From the NCBI GenBank assembly GCA_001799695.1, contig MGTY01000022.1:4031-68030 (forward strand): DNA of 64,000 nt. Reading direction: 5' to 3'. The notes under the pieces are model-generated. The model saw only the letters and a program-made list of their open reading frames with translations. It was not told the origin of the DNA and did no database searches. Below, in pieces: positions 15,354 through 35,114 of the stretch. Origin of the DNA: Elusimicrobia bacterium GWA2_69_24. Lineage in GTDB: Bacteria; Elusimicrobiota; Elusimicrobia; UBA1565. How positions within the stretch are numbered: the first letter of the stretch is position 1; each line of letters opens with the position of its first letter. A program made the translations under genes and the position numbers.

Positions 15354-15811
15354 CGGCGTGGCACGCGTGGCATGACACCCCGAAAACCTCGCTCAGGGCG
15401 CGCCCTGCCGCCCGCGGCGTTCAGCCCCTCAGGGCGGCATCCGGGTGGCACGGAGAAGCTTGCCATCCGAAGGCCGTTTCAACTAGACTCGTGACGCTCC
15501 AGGGTTCCGGAAATCGTCGGGGGTGCTTGCCGGGACTGACGGAGCGAAGCTGTGCCTGGCGACCTCGGGACATGCGTTGGCCCCGTTCCGCATCGGCGAT
15601 TGATCGTCGTCCATGTCTGTCTGCATTGCGCGATCGCCGGCGCTCGTCCCGGCACGCGCGACCGCCACGGGACGAACTCGAGGTGAGCACATGTAGTGTC
15701 CCGGGTCGGAGGCGCGGGCCGTATATCGGTTTGGTTTCCTGGACTTCTGGGTTATGATGAACGCCGTTTGCAGGGGCGTCGACAGCCGAAAGGCATCGCT
15801 CGCGCAGTGAA

Positions 15812-15837
15812 CACGCTGAGACGGGCACGCTGAGACG
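15812..15837. repeat. tandem 12-bp direct repeat (cacgctgagacg, twice) immediately upstream of the operon start
   Basis: Two perfect copies separated by 2 nt, ending 3 nt before the GTG at 15841. The local sequence is lower in GC. Confidence 0.4.
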
Positions 15838-15840
15838 AGT

Positions 15841-16347
15841 GTGAAGATTCTCGCGCATCGAGCGAACCTGAACGGGCCCGGCAGCGGCGACAACCGCCCG
15901 GAATCCATCCGGGCGTGCCTCGAGCGGGGCGTCGGTGTGGAGGTCGATGTGCTGGGCGTCAATGGGGAGCTCTGGTTCGGACATGACCGGCCAGAACGGA
16001 GGGCCGATGTCGAGCTGCTCGCCAGGGCCGGCGTCATGTGCCACGCGAAGGACATCCAGGCGGCCTCAATCCTCCGCTCGTTGCCTGTCAGCTTCTTCTG
16101 TCTTGGCAGGGACGAGTTCGCCCTCTGCTCGAACGGGCTCATCTGGTCTAATTATGGGTGCATGCCGACGGCGGCATCCATCATGTGCAGTCCGGAGCTG
16201 GTAGGCGCCCCGGAGAGCATCGAGGAATTCTATCCACGAGTGGCGACCGCTTACGGCGTCTGCACGGATCACCCGCTGACGTACGTGAAGCTCCTCGGAC
16301 GTGAGGCCCTAAACGGAATCCTGCTCGAAAGCAGTCCAGACTGGTGA
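15841..16347 (+). CDS. small glycerophosphodiester-phosphodiesterase-like (GDPD-fold) protein
   Basis: N-terminal ILAHRANLNG...DNRPESIRACLERGVGVEVDV resembles the GDPD HRG...ENT...E.D motif. 168 aa. GC is lower than the surroundings. Confidence 0.4.
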   Translation: MKILAHRANLNGPGSGDNRPESIRACLERGVGVEVDVLGVNGELWFGHDRPERRADVELLARAGVMCHAKDIQAASILRSLPVSFFCLGRDEFALCSNGLIWSNYGCMPTAASIMCSPELVGAPESIEEFYPRVATAYGVCTDHPLTYVKLLGREALNGILLESSPDW

Positions 16348-16351
16348 GGAT

Positions 16352-17476
16352 ATGCTGAAGGCCATCTATGAGCTGAAGTCGCCCGACATCGAAAAGGCCG
16401 CGCACGCGATCGCCGTGGGCCAGTCGGTGGGGAACCCGTACGTGCGGAACTCGCGGGAGACCAAGGCGCTGGTGAAGAAGCACGCGGCGACGGTCGAGTC
16501 GATCGAGGGCGGCAAGGTCACCGTTCGGTTCCCGGCGGTGAACTTCGGACCGCGCGACGGGATTTCGTTCATGATGAGCGTCCTGATGGGCGGCCAGATG
16601 GATATCGACCTCATCGAGGGGTGCAAGCTCCTGGACGTCGAGTTCGGCCCGCTGCTGCGGCGCTTCTCGGGGCCCCGGTTCGGTCTGGAACAGATCCGCC
16701 AGATGACCGGCGCGGTCGACCGGCCGCTCATCGGCGGCATCGTCAAGCCGAAGATCGGGCTCACGCCCGACGGGCTGGCCGAGGTCTGCCGCGAGATGGC
16801 CGAGGGCGGCGTGGACTTCATCAAGGAGGACGAGATCCTCGGTGATCCGTCCTGGTGCCCGCTCCGGAAGCGCGTGCCGGCGGTGGCGGAGGCCTTGAAG
16901 GGCTTCAGGACCGTGTACGCTCCCTGCATCACGGCGGACGGCGACGAGGTCGTCCGACGGGCCAGGCTCGCGAAGTCACTCGGCGCGACGGCTGTCCACG
17001 TGAACCTCTGGTCCGGTCTCGGGAGCTATGCCAGGATCCGTGAGAAGGTCGAAATCCCGATCTTCTTCCAGAAGAGCGGTGACAAGGTGTTCACCACCGG
17101 CCACCACTCGCTGCAGTTCTCGCTTCTGTGCAAGCTCATCCGCCTGATCGGCTGCGACTTCACGCACGTCGGCATGTGGGGCGGCTACATGAGCGAGCCC
17201 GAGGTGGAGCTGCGGGAGCGCCTGTATGCGCTCCAGGGGCCGTGGTGCGAGCTTCCGAGGGTCGTTCCCAGTTTCTCCTGCGGGGCGCACCCCGGGATGG
17301 TCCAGGCCCTCGTCAAGCGCTTCGGAAACGACATCATGGTGACCTCGGGGGGGGCGATCCACGGGCATCCCCTCGGCACCCGCGCGGGCGCCATGGCGTT
17401 CCGCCAGGCGCTCAGCGCGAGCACGCCGCCGCCGGAGCTGGCGGCCGCGATCGAGGAGTGGGGGCTTGTGCGGTGA
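16352..17476 (+). CDS. RuBisCO-like protein (form IV RLP, RuBisCO large-subunit family)
   Basis: IGGIVKPKIGL (the KPK carbamylation motif) and GGVDFIKEDE (the GGLDFTKDDE equivalent). 374 aa, no small subunit nearby. Confidence 0.8.
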   Translation: MLKAIYELKSPDIEKAAHAIAVGQSVGNPYVRNSRETKALVKKHAATVESIEGGKVTVRFPAVNFGPRDGISFMMSVLMGGQMDIDLIEGCKLLDVEFGPLLRRFSGPRFGLEQIRQMTGAVDRPLIGGIVKPKIGLTPDGLAEVCREMAEGGVDFIKEDEILGDPSWCPLRKRVPAVAEALKGFRTVYAPCITADGDEVVRRARLAKSLGATAVHVNLWSGLGSYARIREKVEIPIFFQKSGDKVFTTGHHSLQFSLLCKLIRLIGCDFTHVGMWGGYMSEPEVELRERLYALQGPWCELPRVVPSFSCGAHPGMVQALVKRFGNDIMVTSGGAIHGHPLGTRAGAMAFRQALSASTPPPELAAAIEEWGLVR

Positions 17477-17496
17477 GGCGGTTCCCTTTTGGTGAG

Positions 17497-17793
17497 ATGA
17501 AGGAGGGTTGGTTCGTCGGCGACTTCGAGCCGACGGCCTACCGGACCCCCGCAGCGGAGGTGTGCTTCAAGCACCACGCGAAGGGGGAAGCGTGGGCGAC
17601 GCACTACCACGCCATGGCGACCGAGATCAACCTCGTGGTGAGGGGCACGATGCGCGCCAACGGTCAGGAGTTCCGGGAGGGGGACATCTTCGTCGTGGAT
17701 CCGGGCGAGGTCATCGCGCCGGAGTTTCTCTCGGATTGTGAGCTCGTCGTGGTGAAGGTCCCGTCCCTTCCGGGGGACAAGTACCCCGCATGA
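17497..17793 (+). CDS. cupin-domain protein
   Basis: About 98 aa. HYHAMATEINLVVRGT...GDIFVVDPGEV matches a cupin barrel. An alternative GTG at 17473 would overlap the RLP stop. Confidence 0.6.
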   Translation: MKEGWFVGDFEPTAYRTPAAEVCFKHHAKGEAWATHYHAMATEINLVVRGTMRANGQEFREGDIFVVDPGEVIAPEFLSDCELVVVKVPSLPGDKYPA

Positions 17794-18572
17794 TCAACGT
17801 CGTGTTCCCGATGGCCGGCCGCGGCCAGCGGTTCGCGCAGCAGGGGTTCCACGGGCCGAAGCCGATGATCGAAGTGCTGGGCAAGCCGCTCATCGAGCAC
17901 GCGCTCGACGGATACACCCTGGAAGGCCGGTACATCTTCGTCGTGCTCCGGGAGCACCTGGCGCTGGGGCTCGGCAGCCTGCTCGCCCGCCTGCGGCCCG
18001 GCGCGACGATCGTTCCGATCGACGAGCTGACGGAGGGACCGGTCTGCACGGTACTCAAGGCGAAGTCGGAGATCGACACGGACGATGAGCTGCTCATCGC
18101 GGACTGTGACTCCGTGCTGGTCTGGCCGGATCGATGGGTCCTGGACTGGTTCAAGCGCCGGGGCGCGACCGGGGGTGTGACGACACGCATCACCACCGAC
18201 CCCGCGTGCTCGTTTGCGGCGCTCGACGAGCATGGATGGGTTCTCGAGACGCGGGAGAAGGACCCGTTCACGATGTTCTCGACAACCGGGCCGTACTGGT
18301 GGAGGCGCGGACGGGACTTCGTCGAAGCCGCGGAGCGGATGATCGCCGCGGATCGGCGGGCGAACGGCGAGTTCTACGTCAATCCCGCGTACAACGACCA
18401 CATCGCGGGCGGCGGACGCGTCCTGGCCTATCCGCTCGCCGAGTTCTGGTCGCTCGGAACGCCCGAGGGCGTGACCGCGTTCGTGAGGGAGCGACGCGGC
18501 GCGGGCGGGTTGAGCCCCGCGTCCGGCGATGGGAGCGCCTCGCGCCGGGTGGCCTCGCCCGCGAGAACTTGA
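17790..18572 (+). CDS. nucleotidyltransferase (sugar-phosphate/phospho-alcohol NTP-transferase, LicC/IspD/GlmU-like fold)
   Basis: ATGA overlap with the cupin stop. N-terminal VVFPMAGRGQRF P-loop of the NTP_transferase family. Confidence 0.7.
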   Translation: MINVVFPMAGRGQRFAQQGFHGPKPMIEVLGKPLIEHALDGYTLEGRYIFVVLREHLALGLGSLLARLRPGATIVPIDELTEGPVCTVLKAKSEIDTDDELLIADCDSVLVWPDRWVLDWFKRRGATGGVTTRITTDPACSFAALDEHGWVLETREKDPFTMFSTTGPYWWRRGRDFVEAAERMIAADRRANGEFYVNPAYNDHIAGGGRVLAYPLAEFWSLGTPEGVTAFVRERRGAGGLSPASGDGSASRRVASPART

Positions 18573-18613: not shown

Positions 18614-20413
18614 ATGGTTGACCTTCTCAGGAAGCTCCTGGCGCTGCTCTCGGCTCGCGAAAAGCTCGGGTTCCTCGGCGTGCTGGGCGGGATGGTCGTC
18701 GCCGCGGGGCTGGAAGCGGTCGGGCTGGGCATTCTGCTCGCGTTTCTCGTGCTTCTTCGCGGTGAGGGGATCCCATCAGGGTACCCCCAGCTCGCGCGGG
18801 TGCTCGAGGTGGTCGGCGCGCCCTCGGGCCCCGCCGCACTCACCTGGCTGAGCCTGGCGGTGCTCGTCTTCTACGTGACGAAGAACGTCTATCTCGGCTG
18901 GCTCTATCACGTCGAGTTCACTATCGTCTACCGGAAGCAGACGGACCTCTCCAAGCGCGTCCTGCGAGCCTACCTGGACAAGCCGTACACGTTCCACCTC
19001 CAGCGGAACACCGCCGAGCTGCTGAAGAACGTGACCGAGGAGGTCCACGCGACCTGCCACAACGTCCTCGTCCCCTTGCTGCTGCTGACCTCCGAGGCGA
19101 TGGTGATCACCGTGATCGTGGGCGCGCTGATGGCCGTCGACCCGGTCGTCACGCTGTCCGTGCTGGTCCTGACGGCGGCGACCGGCTGGACCGTGGTGTC
19201 GCGCGTGCAGCGGAGGCTGAAGGTCCAGGGGCAGGCCAAGCAGCAGTACTTCGAAGCGATGATCAGGTGGGTGAACCAGAGCTTCGGCAGCCTCAAGGAA
19301 ATCACGATCCTCGGCCGCCAGGGCTGGTTCGTGGAGATCTACGGCAGAAGCGCCGCGGGGTTCGGGCACTCCTTGCGCTTCGTCGCCATGGCCCACCAGC
19401 TCCCCCGGCTCGTCATCGAGGCGATGGCCGTCAGCGTCATCGCGTTGACTGTGCTCCTCGTCCAGTGGCAGGGCGGCGGGATCGAGCGCATCATCCCGGT
19501 CCTGGCGCTCTTCGGTCTCGCGGCGGTGCGCCTGATGCCGTCGGCCGGCCGGGTGGCGAGCATGCTCACGATGCTGCGTTACTTCAAGCCCGCGGTCGAC
19601 GTGGTCCATCGCGACCTGGACCTGGACCGGCCGCGTCCGGGCGCCATGCCGCAGCCGGCCGTGCCGACGCGGTACGGGGCACCAGTCCTCCGGCTCGCGC
19701 ACGAGCTGGCCCTGGACGGCGTCTCGTACCGCTTCCCCGGTGCCGAGGCGTGGGTCCTCAAGGACGTCTCGCTCGTGATCAGGAAGGGGGCCCTGGTCGC
19801 GATCGCGGGGCCCTCGGGGGCCGGCAAGACGACGATCCTCGATCTCATCCTGGGATTGCTGACGCCCGACACCGGGCGAGTGCTCGTGGACGGCCGCGAC
19901 GTCCGCGAGAACCTGCGCGCGTGGCAGGCGAACATCGGGTACGTCCCGCAGGTCGCGTACATCCTCGACGACTCGATCAGGCGCAACGTCGCCCTCGGCG
20001 TGCCGGACGCCGAGATCGACGACGAGAGGGTGTGGTGGGCGCTGTGTGGCGCGCAGCTCGAGTCGTTCGCGCAGGCGCTCCCCGGCCGGCTGGACACGCT
20101 CGTCGGGGAGCGCGGCAGCCGGCTGTCCGGCGGCGAGCGCCAGCGCCTCGGCATCGCGCGGGCGCTGTACCATGACCCCGACGTGCTGGTGATGGACGAG
20201 CCCACGTCCGCCCTGGACTACGCGACGGAGCACGAGGTGATCCGCGTGATCGACGCGATGCGAGGGCAGAAGACCGTGCTCGTCGTGGCGCATCGGCTGT
20301 CGACCGTGCGCTCGTGCGACGAGATCTACATGGTCAGGCAGGGGACGGTGTCCGGGCCTCTCCAGTACGGAGACGTCGTCGCCCTCGCGGGCGCCGCCGG
20401 CGACGTCCCGTGA
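18614..20413 (+). CDS. ABC exporter, fused permease + ATPase (MsbA/PglK-like lipid-linked glycan flippase candidate)
   Basis: Six-TM N-terminal domain, then Walker A GPSGAGKTT, ABC signature LSGGERQRLGIARAL, and Walker B VLVMDEPTSALD. Confidence 0.85.
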   Translation: MVDLLRKLLALLSAREKLGFLGVLGGMVVAAGLEAVGLGILLAFLVLLRGEGIPSGYPQLARVLEVVGAPSGPAALTWLSLAVLVFYVTKNVYLGWLYHVEFTIVYRKQTDLSKRVLRAYLDKPYTFHLQRNTAELLKNVTEEVHATCHNVLVPLLLLTSEAMVITVIVGALMAVDPVVTLSVLVLTAATGWTVVSRVQRRLKVQGQAKQQYFEAMIRWVNQSFGSLKEITILGRQGWFVEIYGRSAAGFGHSLRFVAMAHQLPRLVIEAMAVSVIALTVLLVQWQGGGIERIIPVLALFGLAAVRLMPSAGRVASMLTMLRYFKPAVDVVHRDLDLDRPRPGAMPQPAVPTRYGAPVLRLAHELALDGVSYRFPGAEAWVLKDVSLVIRKGALVAIAGPSGAGKTTILDLILGLLTPDTGRVLVDGRDVRENLRAWQANIGYVPQVAYILDDSIRRNVALGVPDAEIDDERVWWALCGAQLESFAQALPGRLDTLVGERGSRLSGGERQRLGIARALYHDPDVLVMDEPTSALDYATEHEVIRVIDAMRGQKTVLVVAHRLSTVRSCDEIYMVRQGTVSGPLQYGDVVALAGAAGDVP

Positions 20414-21459
20414 CGGCGGCGCGCGACTTCGCGCTCGCGATCAGCGCCGACGAGGAGGTGGACGACGTCCGGTTGCTCGTCGACATCTTCCGGCGCAACT
20501 GGACAGGGAGCTTCCACATCGTCGTGTGCGCCGCGAGCGCGGGCGCCGCGGCCGAGATCGGACGCTGCGACGTCGACAGTGTCGCCATCGGCGAAAGCGT
20601 CCGTCTCGAGGCCGACCCGCGTGAGGCGCTCCAGGAGCACATCGCCGGGGCGCTACGCGCGGTGGACGGGATCCGGAAGGCGTGCGGCCTCGCGGCCGGC
20701 TCGAGCGCGCCCTACACGATGCATCTGGCGGCCGGACGCTACCCGCTGGCGTGGGATCCGGTGCGGGCGCTCGGCGAGGGGATGAGGCGGAGGGGCGCGG
20801 TCCTGGCGGCGCGCGGGCAGGGCTTCGGGCTCTACGCGCACGACACCCCGGTGGGACGGTTCGATCCCGCATTCTTCGTCGTCGACAACGCGTTCGCCCG
20901 GGCGAGGCGCCTGTGGGAGTTTTCGCTGGCCGATTTCCTGCCGCACAAAGTGTCCGCGCCCGGGTTCGTCGCGCTCTGGGCGCTGGGGCGCGTGGGGGTG
21001 CACCGGTTCTGGCGCTATGCAGCGGATGACGGCGGCGAAGGTCCGATCGCGTTCGATCCCGCGCGCGGCTTTCTGCGGGTCGACGCCTCGAGGCTTCCGC
21101 CCGACCTGGCGTCCCGACTGGTGGCATCCTACTTCGCCGAGTACGGTGTCACGCGCGGGCCGGCGATCGAGGCGTTTCACGCCCGCTGGGGAGCGGACGC
21201 GGCCGCGGCGAGGGACGAGGCGCGCGCGGTGGGCCGTGGGGCCGGCCGACGCCCCGGCGCCTGGGCCCGGGGACGGGCGTTCCTCAGGGAGCGGCTGGTC
21301 CGTCGCTGGATCTATCGCTACCGGTATGGCGACATGGTATGGCCCCGCGGGCTGGACGACGTGTATCGAGCGGCGTTCGGAGGCGCCGGGCCCGCGCCCG
21401 CCGAGCTCCGGGACGTCTCGTTCGACATGCCGTCTCCTCGGAGGTCCCGCGCGCCGTGA
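20410..21459 (+). CDS. hypothetical protein, tandem paralog 1 (unknown family, FFVVDNAFAR motif)
   Basis: GTGA overlap with the ABC stop. Shares NW.GS..IVVC, RKACG, G.GFG.YA...PVG.FD..FFVVDNAFAR, FLPHK(V/I)S with the next gene. Confidence 0.55.
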   Translation: MTAARDFALAISADEEVDDVRLLVDIFRRNWTGSFHIVVCAASAGAAAEIGRCDVDSVAIGESVRLEADPREALQEHIAGALRAVDGIRKACGLAAGSSAPYTMHLAAGRYPLAWDPVRALGEGMRRRGAVLAARGQGFGLYAHDTPVGRFDPAFFVVDNAFARARRLWEFSLADFLPHKVSAPGFVALWALGRVGVHRFWRYAADDGGEGPIAFDPARGFLRVDASRLPPDLASRLVASYFAEYGVTRGPAIEAFHARWGADAAAARDEARAVGRGAGRRPGAWARGRAFLRERLVRRWIYRYRYGDMVWPRGLDDVYRAAFGGAGPAPAELRDVSFDMPSPRRSRAP

Positions 21460-22652
21460 AGGATCTCGCGATCGCGATCTCGGTCTACGACAAGTTCCAG
21501 GACGTGAAGCTCCTCAGCGACCTGTTCAGGAAGAACTGGCCCGGAAGCTATGATCTCGTCGTCTGCTCTTCCCATCCGCAGGCGGCGTCCCGTCTCGCGG
21601 ACTGCGACATCGACGAGCTGCTGTCGACGGAGAACCTGCCGATGGACGGCCCGGGATCGAGCGACCCACGGGTGTCGCCACGGGCCCGGCTGTGGGTCCG
21701 GGTCATCGACAGCATCCGGAAGGCGTGTGGGCGGTGCGCCGACCGGGCCGAGGCGCCGTTCACGCTCCATCTCCACGCGGACGCGTGCCCGCTGTCCTGG
21801 CCAAAGCTCAGGCGGCTCGCGGAGCGGATGCAGCGTCACGGCAAGTGGTTCGCGGCGCGCGGCGAGGGCTTCGGCTTCTACGCGGTCAACGAGCCCGTCG
21901 GCGGCTTCGACGACATGTTCTTCGTGGTCGACAACGCCTTCGCGCGGGACACGGGCTTCTGGGACTTCGATCCGTTCGACTTCTTGCCCCACAAGATCTC
22001 GATCCACGGGGTGCTCGCGATCCTGGGGCTGACGAGGGTCGGCATCCGGCGCTTCTATCACTACGGGAGCCACACCCGGGCCGTGTACTGGGACGGCAAG
22101 CCGGTCGTGCTGTATCCGCTGAACTCGGCGCATCCGATGTATTTCGACCCCGAAAACTGCTTCCTCCACATTCACGAGAGCGGTTTCCGCGGCGACCTCG
22201 GCGTCCGCCTCAAGGCGCACTACCTGGCGCGGCACGAGGTGACGCGCGGCCAGCACGTGGAGGAATTCCTCGCGAAGTGGCAGACGCCCGAGCCGGAGCT
22301 CTTCGGTGCCCTGGCGGCGAGCGAGGCGGGGCTCCGTCGCTTCTTCCTGCGCCGAGGGCTCTCGCCCGCGGTCTATGGCCGGAACTTCGACCAGATGGCG
22401 GCGTTGCAGGCGGCGTATCTGGGACTGCCGGCCGCCGGCAAGGGCCGGTGGCTCGGCCGCATGCACGCCCAGCAGGCGAAAGGACTGGTCTCGACGTTGG
22501 TGCGCCGGCGGTTCATGCGCGGCCGGATCTTCCGGGACCGCTACCTGGACACGGTCTGGCCCGATCGCCTGGACGACCTGTACGAGTCCGCCTTCGCCTC
22601 GACGGCGCGCGAAGTGAGGGACTTCTCGCTCGACGGCGCGGAATTTCCTTGA
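21456..22652 (+). CDS. hypothetical protein, tandem paralog 2
   Basis: GTGA overlap with the paralog 1 stop. Homologous to paralog 1 over the N-terminal 230 aa, with a longer C-terminal region. Confidence 0.55.
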   Translation: MKDLAIAISVYDKFQDVKLLSDLFRKNWPGSYDLVVCSSHPQAASRLADCDIDELLSTENLPMDGPGSSDPRVSPRARLWVRVIDSIRKACGRCADRAEAPFTLHLHADACPLSWPKLRRLAERMQRHGKWFAARGEGFGFYAVNEPVGGFDDMFFVVDNAFARDTGFWDFDPFDFLPHKISIHGVLAILGLTRVGIRRFYHYGSHTRAVYWDGKPVVLYPLNSAHPMYFDPENCFLHIHESGFRGDLGVRLKAHYLARHEVTRGQHVEEFLAKWQTPEPELFGALAASEAGLRRFFLRRGLSPAVYGRNFDQMAALQAAYLGLPAAGKGRWLGRMHAQQAKGLVSTLVRRRFMRGRIFRDRYLDTVWPDRLDDLYESAFASTAREVRDFSLDGAEFP

Positions 22653-22653
22653 C

Positions 22654-23295
22654 ATGAGCGCAGCCCGTTCTTTACACGAGAAGACAGGCATGACGGCAGA
22701 CTTCACGGAGCGCGCCAGGGCGTACCTGGCGGACGCCCGCGACACGCTGGACCGCATTCCCGTCCAGGTGGTGGAGAAGATCTTCCACGTCCTGTGCGAT
22801 GCCTACCGCGAGGACCGGCAGGTGATCCTGATGGGCAACGGCGGATCCGCCGCGCTGGCTTCGCACTTCGCCGTGGACCTCGGGAAAGGGACGGCGGCCG
22901 CCGGTCGCCGGCGACTGCGTGCCGTCTCGATCGTGGACAACACGCCGGTGATGACCGCGTACGCCAACGACCTGTCGTACGCCGACGTCTTCTCCGAGCA
23001 GATTCGCGCGCTCGCGAAGCGGGGCGACGTCGTCTTCGGCATCTCGGGCAGCGGCAGCTCGCCGAACATCCTGAAGGGGCTCGCGGCTGCCCGTGAAGTG
23101 GGGGCGACCACCGTGGTCCTGACCGGCTACCAGGGGGGCAAGGCCATCGACATGGCCGACGTGACGTTGGTGGTGCCCTCCGACGACATGCAGCACATCG
23201 AGGACTGCCACCTGGCGCTGACGCACCTGTACATGCAGGCGATGCGCGAGGTCGTTCGCGAGTCGCCGATCACCGAGCCGGGCCGCTGCCAGTAA
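22654..23295 (+). CDS. gmhA: D-sedoheptulose-7-phosphate isomerase (SIS domain, GmhA-like)
   Basis: VILMGNGGSAALASHFAVDL and GISGSGSSPNI SIS motifs, about 200 aa. An alternative start lies at ATG 22690. Confidence 0.8.
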   Translation: MSAARSLHEKTGMTADFTERARAYLADARDTLDRIPVQVVEKIFHVLCDAYREDRQVILMGNGGSAALASHFAVDLGKGTAAAGRRRLRAVSIVDNTPVMTAYANDLSYADVFSEQIRALAKRGDVVFGISGSGSSPNILKGLAAAREVGATTVVLTGYQGGKAIDMADVTLVVPSDDMQHIEDCHLALTHLYMQAMREVVRESPITEPGRCQ

Positions 23296-23371
23296 CGGGG
23301 ATCCTCGCCGCGCCTTTGGCGACGTGCGAACATGGTCGCGTGCGAATGACCGCCGTAACGCTCCGTGCCGT

Positions 23372-24373
23372 ATGAAGACGATCGTCACTGGCGGCGCTGG
23401 GTTCATCGGCAGTCACCTGGTCGACCGCCTCCTCAGCGACGGGCACGACGTGACGGTGCTGGACAACTTCAGCACCGGGCGCCCGCAGAATCTCGCCCAG
23501 CACGGAAACAATCCCCGCTTGCGGGTTGTCGAGGCCGACGTGGGGGACTTCGTCGCGATCCGACCCTGTTTCCACGATGCGGAATGGGTCTTTCATCTGG
23601 CCGCGCTTGCCGACATCGTTCCCTCGATCGAGCACCCGCTCGACTATCACCGCGCCAACGTGGACGGCACCGCGAACGTGCTGGAGGCCGCTCGAGCCGT
23701 CGGCGCCCGGCGTGTCCTCTACACCGCCTCGTCGTCCTGTTACGGGATCGCCGACGTGTACCCGACGCCGGAGACGGCGCCGGTTCGTCCCCAGTACCCG
23801 TACGCGCTCACGAAGTACGTGGGTGAGCAGTATGCGCTCCACTGGGCGCAGGTGTACCGGCTGCCCGTCGCGTCGCTGCGGCTCTTCAACGTGTACGGCC
23901 CACGATCCCGGACGTCGGGCACGTACGGGGCGGTGCTGGGCGTGTTCCTCGCCCAGAAGCTCGCCGGCAAGCCGTTCACCGTCGTCGGCGATGGCACTCA
24001 GGTGCGGGATTTCACCTTTGTGACGGACGTCGCGGATGCGTTCCTCACGGTGGCGACTTCCGACGTCCTGGGAGAGGTGTTCAATGTCGGCTCCGGCCAG
24101 CCGGCGAGCGTCAATCGCCTCGTCGAGCTGCTGGGTGGTGAGGCGGTGCACATCCCGAGGCGCCCCGGCGAGCCCGACCGGACGCACGCCGACATCGGCA
24201 AGATCCAGCGCCAGCTCGGCTGGCGCCCGAAGGTGTCGATCGAGGAGGGCCTAGGCAGGGTCCTCTCCCGCATCCAGGACTGGCGCGAGGCGCCGGTGTG
24301 GACACCGGAGTCGATCGCCGTGGCGACCCACGACTGGTTCCGTTACCTGGGGTCCGCAGTGACGGGGGGATGA
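23372..24373 (+). CDS. NAD-dependent epimerase/dehydratase (UDP-sugar 4-epimerase / UXS-like)
   Basis: MKTIVTGGAGFIGSHL Rossmann motif and YALTKYVGE (YxxxK). Confidence 0.8.
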   Translation: MKTIVTGGAGFIGSHLVDRLLSDGHDVTVLDNFSTGRPQNLAQHGNNPRLRVVEADVGDFVAIRPCFHDAEWVFHLAALADIVPSIEHPLDYHRANVDGTANVLEAARAVGARRVLYTASSSCYGIADVYPTPETAPVRPQYPYALTKYVGEQYALHWAQVYRLPVASLRLFNVYGPRSRTSGTYGAVLGVFLAQKLAGKPFTVVGDGTQVRDFTFVTDVADAFLTVATSDVLGEVFNVGSGQPASVNRLVELLGGEAVHIPRRPGEPDRTHADIGKIQRQLGWRPKVSIEEGLGRVLSRIQDWREAPVWTPESIAVATHDWFRYLGSAVTGG

Positions 24374-24381
24374 CGTGAGTG

Positions 24382-25917
24382 ATGGCGACCAATAGCGTCG
24401 ATCGCAAAGTCTGCGCGTTCGCCGAGTTGCAGGACCGGGTGACGAGCGCGCGAGCCGAGGGCAAGCGAATCGTCCTCTGCCATGGCGTCTTCGACCTGAT
24501 CCATCCGGGCCATGTCCTGCACTTCAAGGCGGCGCGCCAGCACGGCGACCTTCTCGTCGTCACGGTCACGCCGGACCAGTTCGTGAACAAGGGGCCCGGC
24601 CGCCCGGTGTTCAACCAGCGCCTGCGCACGGAGACGATCGCGGCCTTCGAGTTCGTCGACTATGTGGCGCTGAATCTCTGGCCCACCGCCGTCGAGACGA
24701 TCGAGCGGCTGCGGCCGGACGTCTACGTCAAGGGAAGCGAGTACGCCGACCCGGCCCGGGACCTGACGGGCATGATCCTTGCCGAAGAGCGGATGGTCCA
24801 GGCCGTCGGCGGCGCGATCGTGTTCACGACCGAGGAGACCTTCAGCTCAAGCAGTCTCATCAACCGTTACTTCAGCAGTCTGCCGACGCCAACGAACGAA
24901 TACTTACGGGGCTTCCGGCAGCGCCATGGGGCCGAGGAGGTGCTGGGGGCTCTGCGGACGCTCAGCGACCTCGACGTGTTGGTCGTCGGCGAGGCGATCC
25001 TCGACGAGTACTGCTACTGCGTCCCCCTGGGGAAAGCTCCCAAGGACACGATGATCGCCACGAGGTACGTGTCCGAGGACCGGTTCGCCGGCGGGTCGCT
25101 GGCCGTGGCCAATCACCTGGCCGGGGTCTGCCGGTCGGTCACGCTGGTGACGTGCCTCGGCACCGACGATGCCCAGGCGGACTTCGTGCGCTCGAAGCTC
25201 AGTGCGAACGTCACCTTGCTGGCGGCCCGGACGACGGACCGTCCGACGATCGTCAAGCGCCGGTACGTCGAAACGACGTTCCTCGCAAAGCTGTTCGAGG
25301 TCCAGTCGCTCGAGGACCGGCCCATCCAGCCCAAGACCGAGCGCGAGATCGTGGAGGCCCTCGGCGATCGCCTGGCCAAGCACGACTTGGTGGTGGTCAC
25401 CGATTTCGGGCACGGGGTGTTCACCGAAGAGATCCGGAAGCTCCTCTGCTCGTCGACCGCGTTCCTCGCTGTCAACACGCAGACGAACAGCGCGAACCTC
25501 GGATTCAACTCGGTGACGAAGTATCAGCGGGCGGATTACGTCTGCCTGCACGAAGGCGAGCTGAAGCTCGCCCTGCGCGCGCAATACGGTGACGTCCGGG
25601 ACCTCGCGACCCGGATCCGAGCCGAGCTGGCCGCCGGCAGCGTGATGGTTACGCGGGGCCCGAACGGCTCCATGCTGTTCACCGAGGACGGGGCGGTGCA
25701 CGAGACGCCAGCCCTGTCGCTCCGGGTGGTGGATCGCACGGGGGCCGGCGACGCGCTCTTTGCGCTCACCGCCCCGTGCGTGTTCCGTGGTGCCGCGCCC
25801 GAGGTGGTCGGTTTCGTGGCGAACTGCGTCGGCGCCCTCGCCGTCGAGATCATCGGTAACCGGGAGCCGGTCGCGCCCGCGGCGTTGAAGAAGTTCATGG
25901 CCCACCTGCTGATGTGA
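24382..25917 (+). CDS. bifunctional heptose-7-P kinase / heptose-1-P nucleotidyltransferase, with domains in the reverse order to E. coli HldE
   Basis: N-terminal cytidylyltransferase-like domain (CHGVFDLIHPGHVLHF). C-terminal PfkB/ribokinase-family domain (TGAGDALFA). E. coli HldE is kinase-N / transferase-C. Confidence 0.7.
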   Translation: MATNSVDRKVCAFAELQDRVTSARAEGKRIVLCHGVFDLIHPGHVLHFKAARQHGDLLVVTVTPDQFVNKGPGRPVFNQRLRTETIAAFEFVDYVALNLWPTAVETIERLRPDVYVKGSEYADPARDLTGMILAEERMVQAVGGAIVFTTEETFSSSSLINRYFSSLPTPTNEYLRGFRQRHGAEEVLGALRTLSDLDVLVVGEAILDEYCYCVPLGKAPKDTMIATRYVSEDRFAGGSLAVANHLAGVCRSVTLVTCLGTDDAQADFVRSKLSANVTLLAARTTDRPTIVKRRYVETTFLAKLFEVQSLEDRPIQPKTEREIVEALGDRLAKHDLVVVTDFGHGVFTEEIRKLLCSSTAFLAVNTQTNSANLGFNSVTKYQRADYVCLHEGELKLALRAQYGDVRDLATRIRAELAAGSVMVTRGPNGSMLFTEDGAVHETPALSLRVVDRTGAGDALFALTAPCVFRGAAPEVVGFVANCVGALAVEIIGNREPVAPAALKKFMAHLLM

Positions 25918-26959: not shown

Positions 26960-27783
26960 GGGACGGCGAGGGTCTCGAAGAGCTCGACCGGATCGCGAGA
27001 GAGATCCGTGGCAGGGTCGTCGAGATGTCGCACCGGGCGAAGACGCCGCACCTCGGGTCGGCCCTCTCCTGCGTGGATATCCTCGTGGCGGTCTACTGGG
27101 CGACGCTCAGAATCGACCCGCGAAACCCGAGGGACCGGGAGCGGGACCGGTTCATCCTGAGCAAGGGCCACGCGGTGAGCGCGCTGTACGCCGCGCTGGC
27201 CTACCGGGGCTTCTTCCCGGTCGCACAACTCGAGACCTTCAACGAGGCGGGGAGCGCTCTGGCGGAGCAACCGAGCCCGGCGTGCGTGGCGGGCCTCGAG
27301 CTGGCGACGGGATCGCTCGGCCACGGGCTCTCGGTGGGGCTGGGCATGGCCTTTGCCGGTCGCCTGGCCGGGCTGCGGCATCGCGTGGTGGTCCTGATGA
27401 GCGATGGCGAGTGCAACGAAGGGTCGGTGTGGGAGGCGGCCCTGCTCGGGGCATCGCTGAAGCTCGGGCAGGTGGCGACGATCGTCGACTACAACAAGTG
27501 GCAGGCCACCGGGCGCAGCAACGAGATCATGGCGCTCGCACCGCTCCGGGAGAAGTGGGAGGCATTCGGATGGAGCGCCTACGAGGTGGATGGTCACGAT
27601 CTCAAGGCGCTCGTCCAGGTCCTCGACAACGTCCCCGACGGCAGCGGCAAGCCGGTGGCCGTCGTGGCGCACACCGTCAAGGGTAAGGGCGTGTCCTTCA
27701 TGGAGGACGACAACAACTGGCACTATCGGAGCCCGACCGCGGAGGAGGTCCGGCAGGCCCGGATCGAGCTCGATCTCGCATGA
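26956..27783 (+). CDS. transketolase, N-terminal (ThDP-binding) subunit of a split transketolase
   Basis: TTGA overlap start. ...HLGSALSCVDILVAVY, GHGLSVGLGMA, and the ThDP motif MSDGECNEGSVWEA. Confidence 0.75.
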   Translation: MRDGEGLEELDRIAREIRGRVVEMSHRAKTPHLGSALSCVDILVAVYWATLRIDPRNPRDRERDRFILSKGHAVSALYAALAYRGFFPVAQLETFNEAGSALAEQPSPACVAGLELATGSLGHGLSVGLGMAFAGRLAGLRHRVVVLMSDGECNEGSVWEAALLGASLKLGQVATIVDYNKWQATGRSNEIMALAPLREKWEAFGWSAYEVDGHDLKALVQVLDNVPDGSGKPVAVVAHTVKGKGVSFMEDDNNWHYRSPTAEEVRQARIELDLA

Positions 27784-28715
27784 GGGACGCGTTTGCGGCC
27801 GAGATCACGGAGCTGGCGACGGAGGACGCGCGCCTCGTCCTGCTTTCGGGCGACATCGGCAACCGGCTCTTCGAGCGCTACAAGCAGCGCCATCCCGACC
27901 GGTTCCTCAACTGCGGCGTCGCCGAGGCCAACATGATCAGCATGGCGGCCGGCATGGCCCTCTCCGGGTTGCGCCCGGTCGCGTACACGATCGCGCCCTT
28001 CGTCACCACGCGCTGCCTGGAGCAGATTCGCGTGGATCTCTGCTACCACAACCTGCCTGTCGTCATCGTTGGCGTGGGCGCTGGCCTCTCCTACGCGTCC
28101 CTGGGGGGTACCCATCACGCGTGTGAGGACATCGCGCTGCTGCGCGTGCTGCCCAACATGAGCATCGTGTGTCCTGGCGACGCGATGGAGGTACGGCTGG
28201 CGATCCGGGCGGCCCTGGGGCAGGAGCGGCCAATCTACATCCGCCTCGGGAAGAAGGGCGAGCCGGCCGTCCACGAGCGCCCGCCGGAGTTCGTGATCGG
28301 CAAGGGGATCGTGCTGCGGCAGGGCAGCGACGTCTGCCTCCTGAGCACGGGCACCGTGCTGCCGCTGGCCCTCGCCGCGGCAACGCGACTCGAGCGCGAC
28401 GGCGTGTCAGCGCAGGTCGTCAGTTTCCACACGGTCAAGCCGCTCGACGAACGCCTGCTGACCGATGTCGCCGGCCGTATTCCGCTCGTCGTCACGATCG
28501 AGGAGCACAGCGTTCTCGGCGGGCTCGGGGGGAGCGTCGCGGAGTGGCTGGCGGATGGGCCGAGCCGCGGCGTGCGCCTCCTCCGCATCGGCACCGCCGA
28601 CGAGTTCATGCACGGCGGAGGTGAGCAGGAGCACGCGCGGGAACACTTCGGGCTCACTGCGGAGAAGGTCGCGGAGCGCACGCTGGCGACGCTGGGCGTG
28701 ATCGGGCGCCGGTAG
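27780..28715 (+). CDS. transketolase, C-terminal (pyrimidine-binding) subunit
   Basis: ATGA overlap. NCGVAEANMISMAAGMA and the C-terminal domain. 311 aa. Confidence 0.8.
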   Translation: MRDAFAAEITELATEDARLVLLSGDIGNRLFERYKQRHPDRFLNCGVAEANMISMAAGMALSGLRPVAYTIAPFVTTRCLEQIRVDLCYHNLPVVIVGVGAGLSYASLGGTHHACEDIALLRVLPNMSIVCPGDAMEVRLAIRAALGQERPIYIRLGKKGEPAVHERPPEFVIGKGIVLRQGSDVCLLSTGTVLPLALAAATRLERDGVSAQVVSFHTVKPLDERLLTDVAGRIPLVVTIEEHSVLGGLGGSVAEWLADGPSRGVRLLRIGTADEFMHGGGEQEHAREHFGLTAEKVAERTLATLGVIGRR

Positions 28716-28718
28716 GGG

Positions 28719-29759
28719 ATGCGGACGCTCGCCGCCGTGCTGGTCGAGACGGGGAGGCCGCTCGTCCTGGCGGAGCTCGAGATACCGCCGCTCAAGCCCG
28801 GGCAGGTGCTGGTCGAGGTCGGCGTCAGCGGCGTGTGCCACACGCAGCTCCTCGAGTGCGACGGGCACCGCGGTGCGGACCCGTTTCTGCCGCATTGCCT
28901 CGGCCACGAAGGGAGCGGCATCGTCCGCGAGGTGGGTCCGGGGGTGGCGAAAGTCGCGCCGGGCGACCGCGTGGTCCTGTCGTGGATGAAGGGCTCCGGC
29001 GCTGACGTGGCGGGCACGGTATACCGCTGGGAAGGGCGTGCCGTCAACGCCGGGGGCATCACCACCTGGAGCCGCCACGCGGTGATCAGCGAAAACCGAC
29101 TCACGCCGCTGCCGGCCGGCGTGCCCCTGCGCGAGGCGGCGCTGCTCGGCTGCGCGGCGCCGACCGGGCTCGGCGCCGTGCTCAACACCGCGCGACCGCG
29201 CCCCGGCGCGACCCTTGCGGTGTTCGGCTGTGGCGGGATCGGCCTCTGTGCCGTCGCCGGCGCAGTGATCGCAGGATGCGCGCGAGTGATCGCCGTGGAT
29301 CTGAACCAGGAGAAGCTCGACCTCGCCAGACAGATGGGCGCGACCGATGCCATCCGGGCCGACCTCACGGAGCCCGTGGCCGAGATCACCCGCTTGTGCG
29401 CGGGAGGTGTCGACGTCGCGATCGAGGCCACGGGCCGTCCGAGCGCCATGGTCCAGGCCTTGCACAGCGTGCGGGGGCAGGGCGGCACAGCCGTGGTCGT
29501 CGGCAACGCGCGCCACGGCGAGCGCGTCGAGATCGACCCGCGCCAGCTCAATCTCGGCAAGCGCCTCCTGGGCACGTGGGGCGGGGACAACTCGCCGGAC
29601 CACGACTTCCCTCGTTATGCCGAGTTGCTGGCCGGCGGCAGGCTCCCCCTCGGCCCGCTTGTCGGGCGGACCTATCGTCTGGCCGACATCAACCAGGCCG
29701 TGGAGGATCTCCGGGCGGGGATCGCCGTGCGGCCGCTCGTCGACCTGGGACTCGGCTGA
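28719..29759 (+). CDS. Zn-dependent alcohol dehydrogenase (MDR family)
   Basis: CLGHEGSGIV zinc ligands, GCGGIGLCAV Rossmann motif. 346 aa. Confidence 0.8.
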   Translation: MRTLAAVLVETGRPLVLAELEIPPLKPGQVLVEVGVSGVCHTQLLECDGHRGADPFLPHCLGHEGSGIVREVGPGVAKVAPGDRVVLSWMKGSGADVAGTVYRWEGRAVNAGGITTWSRHAVISENRLTPLPAGVPLREAALLGCAAPTGLGAVLNTARPRPGATLAVFGCGGIGLCAVAGAVIAGCARVIAVDLNQEKLDLARQMGATDAIRADLTEPVAEITRLCAGGVDVAIEATGRPSAMVQALHSVRGQGGTAVVVGNARHGERVEIDPRQLNLGKRLLGTWGGDNSPDHDFPRYAELLAGGRLPLGPLVGRTYRLADINQAVEDLRAGIAVRPLVDLGLG

Positions 29760-29768
29760 GGGCGGACC

Positions 29769-30392
29769 GTGGTGATCGGGATCGACTTCGACAACACCGT
29801 CGTCTGCTACGACGAGGTCTTCCACCGGACGGCGCGCGGCTGGGGCCTGATCCCCGTGAACGTCCCGACGGGCAAGGGCATGGTCCGCGACTACCTGCGC
29901 GAACGCGGGAGGGAAGACGACTGGACGCGACTTCAGGGCCACGTGTACGGTGCGACGATTCTCGAGGCCCCTGCCTTCCCGGGCGTCCTCGAGTTCCTCG
30001 CGGCCTGCAGAGACCGGCGTATGGCCGTCCACATCATCAGTCACAAGACACTCCGGCCGGTCCTCGGCGAGCCCCGCGATCTGCATCGCGCCGCCCACGA
30101 GTGGCTCGAGGCGCGGGGATTCTACGACACGGCGCGCACGGGGCTGTCACGGGAGGACGTCCACTTCGAGCTGACGAAAGAGGCCAAGCTCGCGCGCATC
30201 GGACGTGTCGGGTGCACGCATTTCGTGGACGATCTGCCGGAGTTCCTCCTCGATCCCGGTTTCCCGGTGGGCGTCCGGCGGATCCTGTTCGACCCGAACG
30301 GTGGCCATGTGGGGCCGGCGGATCTCGATCGCGCCGCGTCCTGGAGCGAGATCGGCGACCTCGTGCTGCGCGCCGGCTCGGCGTCACGGTGA
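29769..30392 (+). CDS. HAD-superfamily hydrolase (candidate sugar-phosphate phosphatase, GmhB-like role)
   Basis: N-terminal VIGIDFDNTVV (DxDxT-type motif I). About 207 aa. GTG start. Confidence 0.5.
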   Translation: MVIGIDFDNTVVCYDEVFHRTARGWGLIPVNVPTGKGMVRDYLRERGREDDWTRLQGHVYGATILEAPAFPGVLEFLAACRDRRMAVHIISHKTLRPVLGEPRDLHRAAHEWLEARGFYDTARTGLSREDVHFELTKEAKLARIGRVGCTHFVDDLPEFLLDPGFPVGVRRILFDPNGGHVGPADLDRAASWSEIGDLVLRAGSASR

Positions 30393-31417
30393 ACCCGGAG
30401 ACGCTGCGAGAGGTGGCCGCGGGGCTCATTGCGCCGCTCGGCCTTCGCGGGGAGACGAGGCTCGAACCGCTGCGGGGCGGCGCCAACAACCGCGTGTTTC
30501 GGCTCGTCGTGGGCGACCGAACGTTACTCTTCAAGGCGTACTTCCAGCACCGGGACGATCCGCGGAACCGGCTCGAGAGCGAGTACGCCTTCACCACATT
30601 CGCGTGGCAGCGCGGGGTACGTCGGGTGCCGCAGCCGCTGGCGCTCGACCCGGTGCACGGTGTGGCGCTTTACGAGTATGTCGAGGGTCGGCCTGTCGCG
30701 CCCGGGGAAGTCAACGAGGCCCTCGTCCGCCAGGCGCTGGACTTCTACCAGGAGTTGAACGGCCACCGGGACCGAGCCGAGGGCGCCGGGCTCCCGCTCG
30801 CCTCGGAGGCGTACTTCACGCTCGCGGCCCATCTGCGCGGCGTGGAAGGGCGAGTGCGGCGGCTGGGGAAGCTGGACGACGCGGGAGACGTGGGCCGCGC
30901 GGCGGCGCGCTTCGTCGCCGCGGACTTGACGGAAGCCTGGGCCCGCATCGCGGCGCTGGTACGCGACGGGGCGAAGAGGCTCGGCCTGCGCCTCGACCGG
31001 GAGCTCGCCCCGGCCGCCCGCTGTCTCTCCCCGTCGGATTTCGGCTTCCACAACGCGATCCTCGGGCGCGACGGCCGCCTCAGATTCGTGGACTTCGAGT
31101 ATGCCGGCTGGGACGACCCGGCGAAGCTGGTCTGCGACTTCTTCTGCCAGGAGGCCGTGCCGGTGCCGGAGACGCACTACGAGTGGTTCGCCGGCGAGGT
31201 GGTCCGCGACCTGCCCGAGCCGGAAGAGCAGCGGGCGCGAGTGGACCTGCTGCGTCCCATCTACAGGATAAAATGGTGCTGCATCCTGCTGAACGAGTTC
31301 CTCCCGCTGGCGCGGGAGCGCCGCCGGTTCACGCGGCGGGCCGAGGATGAGCGCGCGCGGAAGGCGGTGCAGCTGGGGAAGGCCCGCCGAGCACTTCTGC
31401 GTGCGGAGAGCGCATGA
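30389..31417 (+). CDS. aminoglycoside-phosphotransferase/choline-kinase-family kinase (candidate sugar kinase)
   Basis: GTGA overlap start. Brenner-type catalytic loop SPSDFGFHNAI and a FVDFEYAGWDD (DFE) motif. Confidence 0.65.
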   Translation: MNPETLREVAAGLIAPLGLRGETRLEPLRGGANNRVFRLVVGDRTLLFKAYFQHRDDPRNRLESEYAFTTFAWQRGVRRVPQPLALDPVHGVALYEYVEGRPVAPGEVNEALVRQALDFYQELNGHRDRAEGAGLPLASEAYFTLAAHLRGVEGRVRRLGKLDDAGDVGRAAARFVAADLTEAWARIAALVRDGAKRLGLRLDRELAPAARCLSPSDFGFHNAILGRDGRLRFVDFEYAGWDDPAKLVCDFFCQEAVPVPETHYEWFAGEVVRDLPEPEEQRARVDLLRPIYRIKWCCILLNEFLPLARERRRFTRRAEDERARKAVQLGKARRALLRAESA

Positions 31418-32406
31418 GCACGATCGTGGTCCTGGGCGCGAACTCGTTCTCCGGGCAGGATTTCGTCGACCTGCTCCTGGACGATCCGGCGTTGACCGTG
31501 ATCGGGGTGAGCCGCTCGCCGGAGCGATCGGCGCTCTTCCTCCGGTACAAGCTCAGGGAGAACCTCTTGCGGTACCGGTACGTCCAGCTCGACATGAACC
31601 GGCAAATGCCGGCGCTGCTCGATCTGCTCGACGCCGAGCGCCCCGAGGCCGTCGTGAACTTCGCCGCGCAAAGCGAGGTCGCGCCGAGCTGGGAGCACCC
31701 GGAGCACTGGTACCAGACCAACTGTGTCGCGCTGGCCTCGCTGGTGAACCATCTGCGGCAGCGCACGTACCTGCGGCGGTATGTCCACATCTCCTCGCCC
31801 GAAGTCTACGGGACCTGCGTGGGAGAGGTTCGTGAGGATGCCCCGCTGCGACCGAGCACGCCGTACGCTGCTTCGAAGGCGGCGGCCGACCTACTGCTCC
31901 TGGCATACGTCAAGGAGTTCGGGTTCCCCGCCACGTTCGTGCGGGCGACGAACGTGTACGGAGCGCGCCAGCAGCTCTTCAAGATCATCCCGCGATCGGT
32001 GATCTTCGTACGGCTGGGCAAACGGATCGAGCTGCACGGGGGTGGCGCCGCGGTGAAGTCGTACATCCACGTCCGCGACGTCTCCCGTGGCGAGTTGGCG
32101 ATCCTTCGCGAGGGGCGCGCCGGGGAGATCTATCACCTGGCCCCGTCGCAGGGGGTCTCGGTCCGGGAGGTCGTGCGGGCGATCTGCGACCGACTGGGGC
32201 GGCGCCTCGAGGACTGCATAGTCACGGTGGGCGAACGTCCGGGCCAGGATGCGGCGTACGTCATCGACTCGACCCGGGCGCGCACCGAGCTCGGCTGGAA
32301 GCCGCAAGTCGCCCTCGACGAGGGGCTCTCCGACGTCGTCGCGTGGGTCGGCGACTACTGGGACGAGATCGTGCGGCAGCCCCTCACCTACGCGCACAAA
32401 GCCTGA
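31414..32406 (+). CDS. NAD-dependent epimerase/dehydratase (NDP-sugar 4,6-dehydratase-like)
   Basis: ATGA overlap. VLGANSFSGQDFV Rossmann-like motif and YAASKAAAD (YxxxK). Confidence 0.8.
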   Translation: MSTIVVLGANSFSGQDFVDLLLDDPALTVIGVSRSPERSALFLRYKLRENLLRYRYVQLDMNRQMPALLDLLDAERPEAVVNFAAQSEVAPSWEHPEHWYQTNCVALASLVNHLRQRTYLRRYVHISSPEVYGTCVGEVREDAPLRPSTPYAASKAAADLLLLAYVKEFGFPATFVRATNVYGARQQLFKIIPRSVIFVRLGKRIELHGGGAAVKSYIHVRDVSRGELAILREGRAGEIYHLAPSQGVSVREVVRAICDRLGRRLEDCIVTVGERPGQDAAYVIDSTRARTELGWKPQVALDEGLSDVVAWVGDYWDEIVRQPLTYAHKA

Positions 32407-32417
32407 CAGGGGTAACC

Positions 32418-33080: not shown

Positions 33081-33104
33081 CCAGCGGGTTCGAGTCGCGT
33101 GCCG

Positions 33105-35083: not shown

Positions 35084-35114
35084 GGCCCGTGCTGGTTCCT
35101 GGACGGTGGCTCGC

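Follow-up and report, generated by a model that had tools for sequence, protein, structure and literature searches.

A RuBisCO-like protein and its nucleotidyltransferase partner in a surface-glycan cluster of Elusimicrobia bacterium GWA2_69_24: a candidate cassette for a nucleotide-activated glycan unit

To our knowledge, characterised RuBisCO-like proteins (RLPs) act in sulfur salvage or acid-sugar catabolism. Here, we describe an RLP gene of Elusimicrobia bacterium GWA2_69_24 that forms an operon with genes for a GDPD-like protein, a cupin and an NTP-transferase, inside a large surface-glycan cluster. The stretch of DNA analysed, referred to below as the window, comprises 64,000 nucleotides of contig MGTY01000022.1 (assembly GCA_001799695.1, positions 4,031 to 68,030 of the forward strand). 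An earlier note made from these letters had proposed that the operon builds and nucleotide-activates an unusual phospho-sugar or polyol substituent of a glycan, and by genomic inference this is the best-supported reading. In its present form, the reading is that the four genes are a translationally coupled operon and a mobile cassette whose product is a nucleotide-activated unit, built from pentose phosphate and used in surface-glycan decoration; we favour these two claims jointly, with moderate confidence.

Pathways combining an RLP with a cupin, or an RLP with a HAD enzyme and a cupin, have precedent (PMC5893883; PMC3698126). The DeepYkr RLP, a 5-methylthioribulose-1-P 1,3-isomerase, shifts a carbonyl along a pentulose phosphate, and its gene adjoins that of a cupin methylsulfurylase (PMC5893883). 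The adjacency of an RLP and a small cupin is shared with the window operon and makes DeepYkr a plausible model for its chemistry, but the window RLP is only 28% identical to the DeepYkr-type protein 3qfw, neither MtnP nor MtnA occurs in the window context, and the window product is apparently nucleotide-activated. MtnW (YkrW), the 2,3-diketo-5-methylthiopentyl-1-phosphate enolase, which is accompanied by the HAD enzyme MtnX and the cupin MtnD, resembles the window RLP as an enoliser of the same superfamily beside a cupin and sometimes a HAD enzyme. The two differ in their active sites: MtnW has K177V, R295P, H327L and K334S with H294 kept, whereas the clade of the window RLP keeps K177, R/K295 and H327 and carries H294Q and K334Y. 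The MtnW-reference genes are followed by mtnX, while the neighbours of the window RLP are the GDPD-like, cupin, NTP-transferase, ABC exporter and glycan genes, with no methionine-salvage set (mtnX, mtnB, mtnD, mtnK/A) among them. OiaX and other acid-sugar (apionate/tetronate) references adjoin a DUF1537 four-carbon acid-sugar kinase, and none lies beside the window RLP.

A further described group is the divergent 'Form IV-like' clade of Jaffe, Castelle, Dupont and Banfield (2019), a group of unclear function that falls outside the classical RLP clades and was described from Beckwithbacteria and ~80 putative phage scaffolds (PMC6389311). The main text of that paper discusses genomic context for form III-c only, and the word stem 'nucleotidyl' is absent from it. 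The clade of the window RLP likewise has Beckwithbacteria and phage members and likewise stands apart from reference RLPs; the two clades are probably the same, matched by distribution and description and not by sequences. Beyond the 2019 description, we add members from Elusimicrobia, Actinomycetota, Leptospirae, Verrucomicrobiota and DPANN, the obligate NTP-transferase partner, and gene fusions. In the literature on RLPs with nucleotidyltransferases, cupins or polysaccharide synthesis, we found no functional description, and no paper that gives the clade a function or ties RLPs to nucleotide-sugar or glycan-precursor synthesis.

The operon consists of the following genes:

15841–16347, + strand: GDPD-like gene; minimal GDPD-type (PLC-like) phosphodiesterase barrel, 168 aa, GTG start
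16352–17476, + strand: RuBisCO-like protein (RLP); 374 aa, shortened N-domain, ATG start at 16352
17473/17497–17793, + strand: cupin; small single-domain metal cupin, 98 aa from ATG 17497 or 106 aa from GTG 17473
17790–18572, + strand: NTP-transferase; sugar/alcohol-phosphate-type nucleotidyltransferase, 260 aa, ATG start

All four open reading frames (ORFs) of the earlier note are present on one strand, with a coding-type GC content at third codon positions of 0.79–0.93. Two of the junctions it described are as it had them: the GDPD-like stop (16345–16347) lies 4 nt before the RLP start, and the NTP-transferase start overlaps the cupin stop in an ATGA at 17790–17793. Its cupin ORF just after the RLP stop is also there, with an ATG 20 nt downstream of that stop; its start, however, may instead be the in-frame GTG, which overlaps the RLP stop as GTGA, adds 8 residues and yields a protein of the same length as the homologs. 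With this start, all three downstream junctions are compatible with translational coupling. We found no convincing terminator inside the four-gene operon, and one weak sigma-70-like site upstream of it, at 15460–15489.

The RLP is a member of the RuBisCO large-subunit superfamily, with a PF00016 match above the Pfam gathering score (E = 5e-42) and an N-domain plus TIM-barrel fold. Every more specific model scored far below its cut-off: the best NCBIfam match was rubisco_III (188 bits vs 497), with lower scores for the MtnW models NF007095 (172.5 bits vs 409) and TIGR03332 (142 bits vs 513.6), the OiaX model NF042437 (149 bits vs 700) and the form II model (95 bits vs 489). The KPK lysine and GGxDFxKxDE motif on which the earlier note relied occur as K132-P-K134 and as GGVDFIKEDE, which holds K158, D160 and E161 (window RLP numbering). 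The carbamylated lysine and metal ligands together with the K175 equivalent (K158, D160, E161 and K132) are conserved in 43 of 43 clade members.

An alignment of these 43 members with reference RLPs was used to compare the active sites. K175, K177, K201, D203, E204, H327, S379, G381, G403 and G404 are invariant across the clade, as are the substitutions E60G, T65N, W66P, N123G, H294Q, K334Y and G380C, while position R295 is lysine in 27 sequences and arginine in 16. The full residue set of bona fide RuBisCO (forms I–III) is therefore missing, with E60, T65, N123, H294 and K334 replaced. Carboxylation is held to need K334, H294, N123, E60 and T65; since K334, H294, N123 and E60 are lost in the clade, carboxylation is excluded, and the RLP is, as judged from its residues, not a carboxylase. 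The enolisation apparatus and the residues of both phosphate sites are retained. The characterised substrate of MtnW is a monophosphate, and because K177, R295 and H327 are absent from the MtnW references and kept in the clade, the substrate of the RLP may, on this slender ground, carry an anionic group at both ends, perhaps as a bisphosphate.

A neighbour-joining (NJ) tree was built with MtnW, OiaX, three DUF1537-kinase-associated or related RLPs and the RuBisCO 8dht as references, and without DeepYkr and Photo references; in it, the RLP clade splits from the references at 93/100 bootstrap. Identity of the window RLP to the references of the tree is 27–35%, with 31–32% for the OiaX/acid-sugar RLPs and 33–35% for MtnW, the nearest of them; for the whole set of MtnW, OiaX, tetronate-type, form III, DeepYkr and Photo proteins the range is 26–35%. 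In structural alignments, identity was 28% both to 3qfw and to 2qyg. The best PDB sequence match is 8dht, annotated as a ribulose bisphosphate carboxylase, and the sequence score of 3qfw is among the lowest of the 60 PDB matches listed and the lowest among their RLP structures. With phmmer, DeepYkr reached 94 bits and Photo 118–123 bits vs 845–352 bits for the best 120 relatives, which range in identity from 99% down to 44% and all carry PF00016. The placement that the earlier note had left to phylogeny thus gives no grouping with a characterised RLP clade; by sequence comparison, the window RLP belongs to a clade of its own.

This clade is marked by the motifs FFQKSGD and H[VI]GMxGGY. Scans for them recovered 14 genome loci, namely Nonomuraea rosea, Turneriella, a member of Verrucomicrobiia, two members of the Candidate Phyla Radiation (CPR; one of them Beckwithbacteria, L012) and nine DPANN archaea, together with 62 IMG/VR viral contigs, some of which carry ribonucleotide reductase, exonuclease and similar phage-type genes as read from the sequence. 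The N-terminal domain PF02788 is retained in many of the DPANN and CPR members. Among cultured-phage genomes (INPHARED) no RLP homolog was found, and the transferase and cupin occur there alone. Plasmid records yielded classical RLPs only (at most 34% identity), and these served as tree references.

The neighbourhood was compared across 79 loci, which come from bacteria, CPR, DPANN archaea and viral contigs. In 74 of them, a homolog of the NTP-transferase is encoded no more than 1.5 kb away from the RLP; in four of the remaining five the RLP stands at a contig end, and the fifth is a 3-kb contig. Pairwise distances of the RLP and the adjacent transferase are correlated (Mantel r = 0.83, p = 0.001, 55 non-identical pairs). 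Of the 79 loci, 27 have the cupin and 28 the short GDPD-like gene, and ~10 further ones, mainly DPANN, have a full-length PF03009 GDPD. Gene order within the cassette is shuffled from lineage to lineage, which points to selection on co-location and not to inherited synteny. In L080 (RLP 78% identical), synteny with the window begins at the GDPD-like gene and continues through the ABC exporter as far as the heptose genes. The neighbours are thus co-conserved with the RLP, a pattern that the earlier note had singled out as a test of its proposal. As a separate observation, seven DPANN loci (L005, L006, L008, L009, L011, L013 and L014) each encode two paralogous NTP-transferases, one directly after the RLP and the other beside or fused to a full-length GDPD; these cassettes have no cupin and keep the RuBisCO N-terminal domain.

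Several cassette members also occur as fusion proteins:

NTP-transferase + RLP: L001 (P0083) and P0093; 637 aa, two of the best 120 RLP relatives
NTP-transferase + GDPD: L006
NTP-transferase + cupin: 22 of the best 149 of 632 cupin representatives
Cupin + GDPD-like: 4 of the best 149 of 632 cupin representatives
Cupin + HAD: 3 of the best 149 of 632 cupin representatives
Cupin + methyltransferase: 2 representatives
HAD + NTP-transferase: cyanophage S-CAM9 (HAD_2 domain; AOV60556, L078 6341–7726) and L028
NTP-transferase + DHBP synthase: cyanophage S-SKS1 (AGH31555, L079 7001–8428)
NTP-transferase + RpiB: cyanophage Bellamy gp206 (L082 4814–5971)

The 632 cupin proteins are cluster representatives in public data. 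The Bellamy fusion adjoins a cupin, a PfkB-like protein, a HAD enzyme and a class II aldolase/epimerase. For RpiB, DHBP synthase and the class II aldolase/epimerase family, the characterised members have pentose or pentulose 5-phosphates as substrates and work via metal-stabilised enediolates. That the transferase family is fused to RpiB, DHBP synthase or HAD in phages indicates pentose-phosphate chemistry, and by analogy the RLP could be a natural alternative front end to chemistry of the RpiB, DHBP synthase or aldolase type. The S-SKS1, Bellamy and S-CAM9 fusions themselves lie within glycosyltransferase clusters that have no RLP, and in their records the cyanophage fusion proteins are annotated solely as 'DHBP synthase', 'phosphatase' or 'pyrophosphorylase'. 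An assignment of the NTP-transferase + cupin fusions to ManC/AlgA, the phosphomannose isomerase–GDP-mannose pyrophosphorylase (PMI-GMP), was rejected, as PF01050 was absent from ten fusion proteins.

The GDPD-like protein had no Pfam match; its family shows the GDPD catalytic motif HR...E...ExD...HD on a TIM-type barrel (PF03009 type), and a family profile of this short protein matches GDPDs. The cupin gave a marginal Cupin_7 match (2.5e-6, 27.7 bits vs a cut-off of 27), has the metal motif H36-x-H38-x4-E43 of the cupin superfamily with invariant H36, E43 and N45, matches phrog_24762 at 6e-31, and in profile searches of PDB resembles only generic small cupins. The NTP-transferase matched NTP_transf_3 (3.6e-7, 30.9 bits vs a cut-off of 27) and phrog_3980 (1e-48), and carries the nucleotide-binding signature GxGxR of nucleotidyltransferases as MAGRGQRF at residues 8–15. 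No NCBIfam equivalog (MurU, GalU, RfbF, RmlA, IspD) came near its cut-off for this protein, and MurU, AglF, GlmU and RfbF gave weak N-terminal matches only; the best PDB match was 4evw (2.6e-13), an uncharacterised NDP-sugar pyrophosphorylase of V. cholerae. In sequence comparison, the NTP-transferase was 100% identical to a protein recorded for Elusimicrobia bacterium GWA2_69_24.

The surroundings of the operon are those of a glycan-synthesis cluster, as the earlier note had it, and the MsbA-like exporter that it placed right after the operon starts 41 nt past the NTP-transferase stop:

18614–20413, + strand: ABC exporter (context); PglK/MsbA type, ABC_tran + ABC_membrane domains

This exporter matches the NCBIfam models PglK (6e-84) and MsbA (2.5e-71), both under the cut-off, and is likely a flippase for a lipid-linked glycan. 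Upstream in the window lie genes for Wzi, undecaprenyl-diphosphate synthase (UppS), a family 2 glycosyltransferase (GT2), an ArnT/PMT-type transferase and a GDSL esterase. Downstream, the exporter is followed by two paralogs that match no family and then by ADP-heptose-type genes, and further on by a split transketolase, a Zn-dependent dehydrogenase, a GDP-mannose-dehydratase-like protein, and O- and C-methyltransferases. Glycan-type context was seen at every locus inspected, phage loci included: WavE, GT2 and methyltransferases at L001; GDP-mannose dehydratase, GT1/GT4 and FkbM in DPANN; GT25, GT9-like proteins and methyltransferases in marine phages; NeuB and DegT at L080; and GT2 at L081 and L002. 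At L002 (2496–20671, Nonomuraea rosea JCM 17326), the cassette and the GT2 gene after it sit in an island of lower GC content (62%) with three phage-type integrases, a transposase, a radical-SAM enzyme, an S-adenosylhomocysteine (SAH)-hydrolase-type NAD-domain protein and a deoxynucleoside-kinase-like protein; the island speaks for mobility and may hint at a use linked to nucleosides. L081 has a prophage-like appearance, with radical-SAM/SPASM, VRR_NUC and phage replication genes.

Taking gene structure, families, residue loss, clade, co-conservation and fusions as observed, we infer the substrate, product, step order and nucleotide of the following scheme. Judging from its residues, the RLP would have a ketopentose phosphate, perhaps with two phosphate groups, as its substrate, which it would enolise and turn into an isomer or epimer. 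The small metal cupin could then catalyse a follow-up isomerisation or tautomerisation of the keto-sugar, by analogy with the cupins beside other RLPs. The NTP-transferase would join the remaining phosphate ester to a nucleoside monophosphate, giving a donor linked to a nucleoside diphosphate. The minimal GDPD-type barrel presumably contributes a phosphodiester or cyclic-phosphate step at some point in the pathway; candidate reactions are the formation or opening of a cyclic phosphodiester and the supply of an alcohol phosphate. Neighbouring glycosyl- and phosphotransferases would attach the unit to a lipid-linked glycan, for export by the PglK/MsbA-like ABC protein. The ADP-heptose route (GmhA isomerase, HldE kinase/adenylyltransferase, GmhB HAD phosphatase) follows a common logic of ketose-phosphate isomerisation, bisphosphate or mutase handling and nucleotidyl transfer, and the NTP-transferase plus cupin isomerase of PMI-GMP (ManC/AlgA) has an architecture like that of the NTP-transferase + cupin fusions of the cassette. 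Unlike both, the cassette has the RLP as its front end (RpiB or DHBP synthase in phages) and includes a GDPD-type enzyme; the ten fusion proteins noted above had no PF01050.

Several points weigh against this scheme. The cassette lacks a universally conserved kinase or mutase, which leaves the route to a usable phosphate ester unclear; why an anabolic nucleotide-sugar route should include a phosphodiesterase is unexplained; the bisphosphate idea has residue conservation as its sole basis. About 35 marine phage loci show the RLP and transferase only, so that the cupin and GDPD are accessory, and PHROGs lists the three non-RLP families (phrog_34507, phrog_24762 and phrog_3980) under 'unknown function'. 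Finally, the L002 and L081 cassettes stand amid integrases and radical-SAM, SAH-hydrolase-like and deoxynucleoside-kinase-like genes, surroundings that allow a non-glycan target. The cassette might thus make a nucleotide-linked or cyclic-phosphate small molecule instead of a surface-glycan block, for example a donor for phage DNA or virion modification, a soluble metabolite or a signal, with the glycan neighbourhood of the window being just one use among several. The formation or opening of cyclic phosphodiesters is characteristic of GDPD/PLC-type enzymes, the 62 IMG/VR contigs carry the module beside genuine phage genes (ribonucleotide reductase, exonuclease), and the Nonomuraea island and the phage replication genes of L081 fit such a product as well. 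We nevertheless consider it unlikely, as glycosyltransferases of lipopolysaccharide or capsule type (GT2, GT25, GT9-like, WavE) flank the module at every inspected locus, the PglK/MsbA-type flippase directly follows it in the window and in L080, inside a Wzi/UppS/heptose cluster, and PADLOC gave no match to a known defence system.

Known enzymology offers two other explanations. The RLP and cupin could be a salvage or catabolic pair, similar to MtnW/MtnX/MtnD or to the DeepYkr methylthioadenosine (MTA)-isoprenoid shunt, that lies in a glycan cluster by chance, and both the known RLP + cupin and RLP + HAD + cupin pathways (PMC5893883; PMC3698126) and the position of MtnW as nearest tree reference are in its favour. 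We find this very improbable: the MtnW models stay at 142–172 bits vs cut-offs of 409–514, the clade is unlike MtnW at K177, H294, R295, H327 and K334, the identity to 3qfw and its bottom rank among the listed RLP structures speak against DeepYkr, no methionine-salvage Pfam family was among the neighbours scanned or listed, and salvage pathways have no need of a nucleotidyltransferase, the enzyme that is the invariant partner here and in some cases is part of one fusion protein with the RLP. To the idea that the RLP is a divergent but genuine form III-type RuBisCO of nucleoside/AMP salvage, as in CPR and DPANN, we give hardly any credence. Although rubisco_III and the carboxylase 8dht are its best NCBIfam and PDB matches, many members are DPANN or CPR with PF02788 kept, and K175, K177, K201, D203, E204 and H327 are retained, the rubisco_III score is far from its cut-off, and K334Y, H294Q, N123G, E60G and T65N are invariant in the clade. 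Moreover, no AMP phosphorylase or ribose-1,5-bisphosphate isomerase family matched among the DPANN neighbours scanned, which are instead GDP-mannose dehydratase, glycosyltransferases, GDPD and NTP-transferases.

Neither the enzyme families nor the nucleotide-sugar type of operon is new; what is new is their combination, together with the role that it implies for a RuBisCO branch. In a wider form of the nucleotide-activated-unit reading, this widespread RLP branch would be an anabolic enzyme with an undescribed reaction on a pentulose (bis)phosphate or nucleotide-linked ketose, whose product leads to a new nucleotide-activated unit with which cells and phages decorate glycans, or possibly phage DNA or virions; we advance this tentatively, with slightly less than even confidence. 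The NTP-transferase partnership gives the function question of the 2019 'Form IV-like' clade a concrete and testable answer, the candidate RLP substrates can be short-listed to pentulose mono- and bisphosphates, and a culturable carrier of the cassette exists in N. rosea JCM 17326. If true, this would be the first role of the superfamily in glycan-precursor biosynthesis, extending the chemistry of the RuBisCO scaffold with a bearing on the evolution of carboxylation. It would also provide a new activated sugar-like donor, relevant to glycan diversity, phage–host recognition and serotype conversion, and a function for phrog_34507, phrog_24762 and phrog_3980.

A short repeat precedes the operon:

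15812–15837, + strand: 12-nt repeat pair; two exact copies of CACGCTGAGACG with GG between

The earlier note had called this a perfect 12-bp tandem repeat. The two copies (15812–15823 and 15826–15837) are indeed exact, but the 2-nt spacer means that they are not strictly tandem, and the program TRF made no call; the pair ends 3 nt before the GTG of the GDPD-like gene. No further copies of the 12-mer occur elsewhere in the 64-kb window. With one mismatch allowed, at least two matches were found in 30 of 100 shuffles, a test of copy number and not of the adjacency of exact copies. A regulatory or ribosome-binding context is possible, but its significance is doubtful and we give the repeat no weight. 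The window contained no Rfam family and no tRNA.

The two paralogs right after the ABC exporter (20314–21459 and 21339–22652; ~380–437 aa, 38% identical) had no Pfam, NCBIfam, PHROG or PADLOC match, and L080, the syntenic locus, was the only place where homologs of them were seen (420 and 421 aa). Their identification as WavE/DUF7796-like putative transferases was rejected at an hhalign probability of 1.7%; they could be novel transferases or polymerases for the window glycan. The adjoining ADP-heptose-type genes (22654–25917) encode an SIS isomerase, an epimerase and a bifunctional protein with a cytidylyltransferase-like N-terminal part and a PfkB kinase as its C-terminal part; the domain order of E. 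coli HldE is the reverse.

Further along, 27780–36317 encodes the C-terminal half of a transketolase, the Zn-dependent dehydrogenase, the GDP-mannose-dehydratase-like protein, an O-methyltransferase and two sugar C-methyltransferase-type genes (Methyltransf_13/14), a gene set suggesting that the cluster holds another pathway as well, leading to a branched or C-methylated sugar. The segment 55300–58300 has a GC content of 0.58 vs ~0.69 and carries methyltransferase-like ORFs; the adjoining ORF 54180–55304 reads by eye like an NTP-transferase with an N-terminal CBS-type region. This low-GC segment may have been horizontally acquired within the glycan region.

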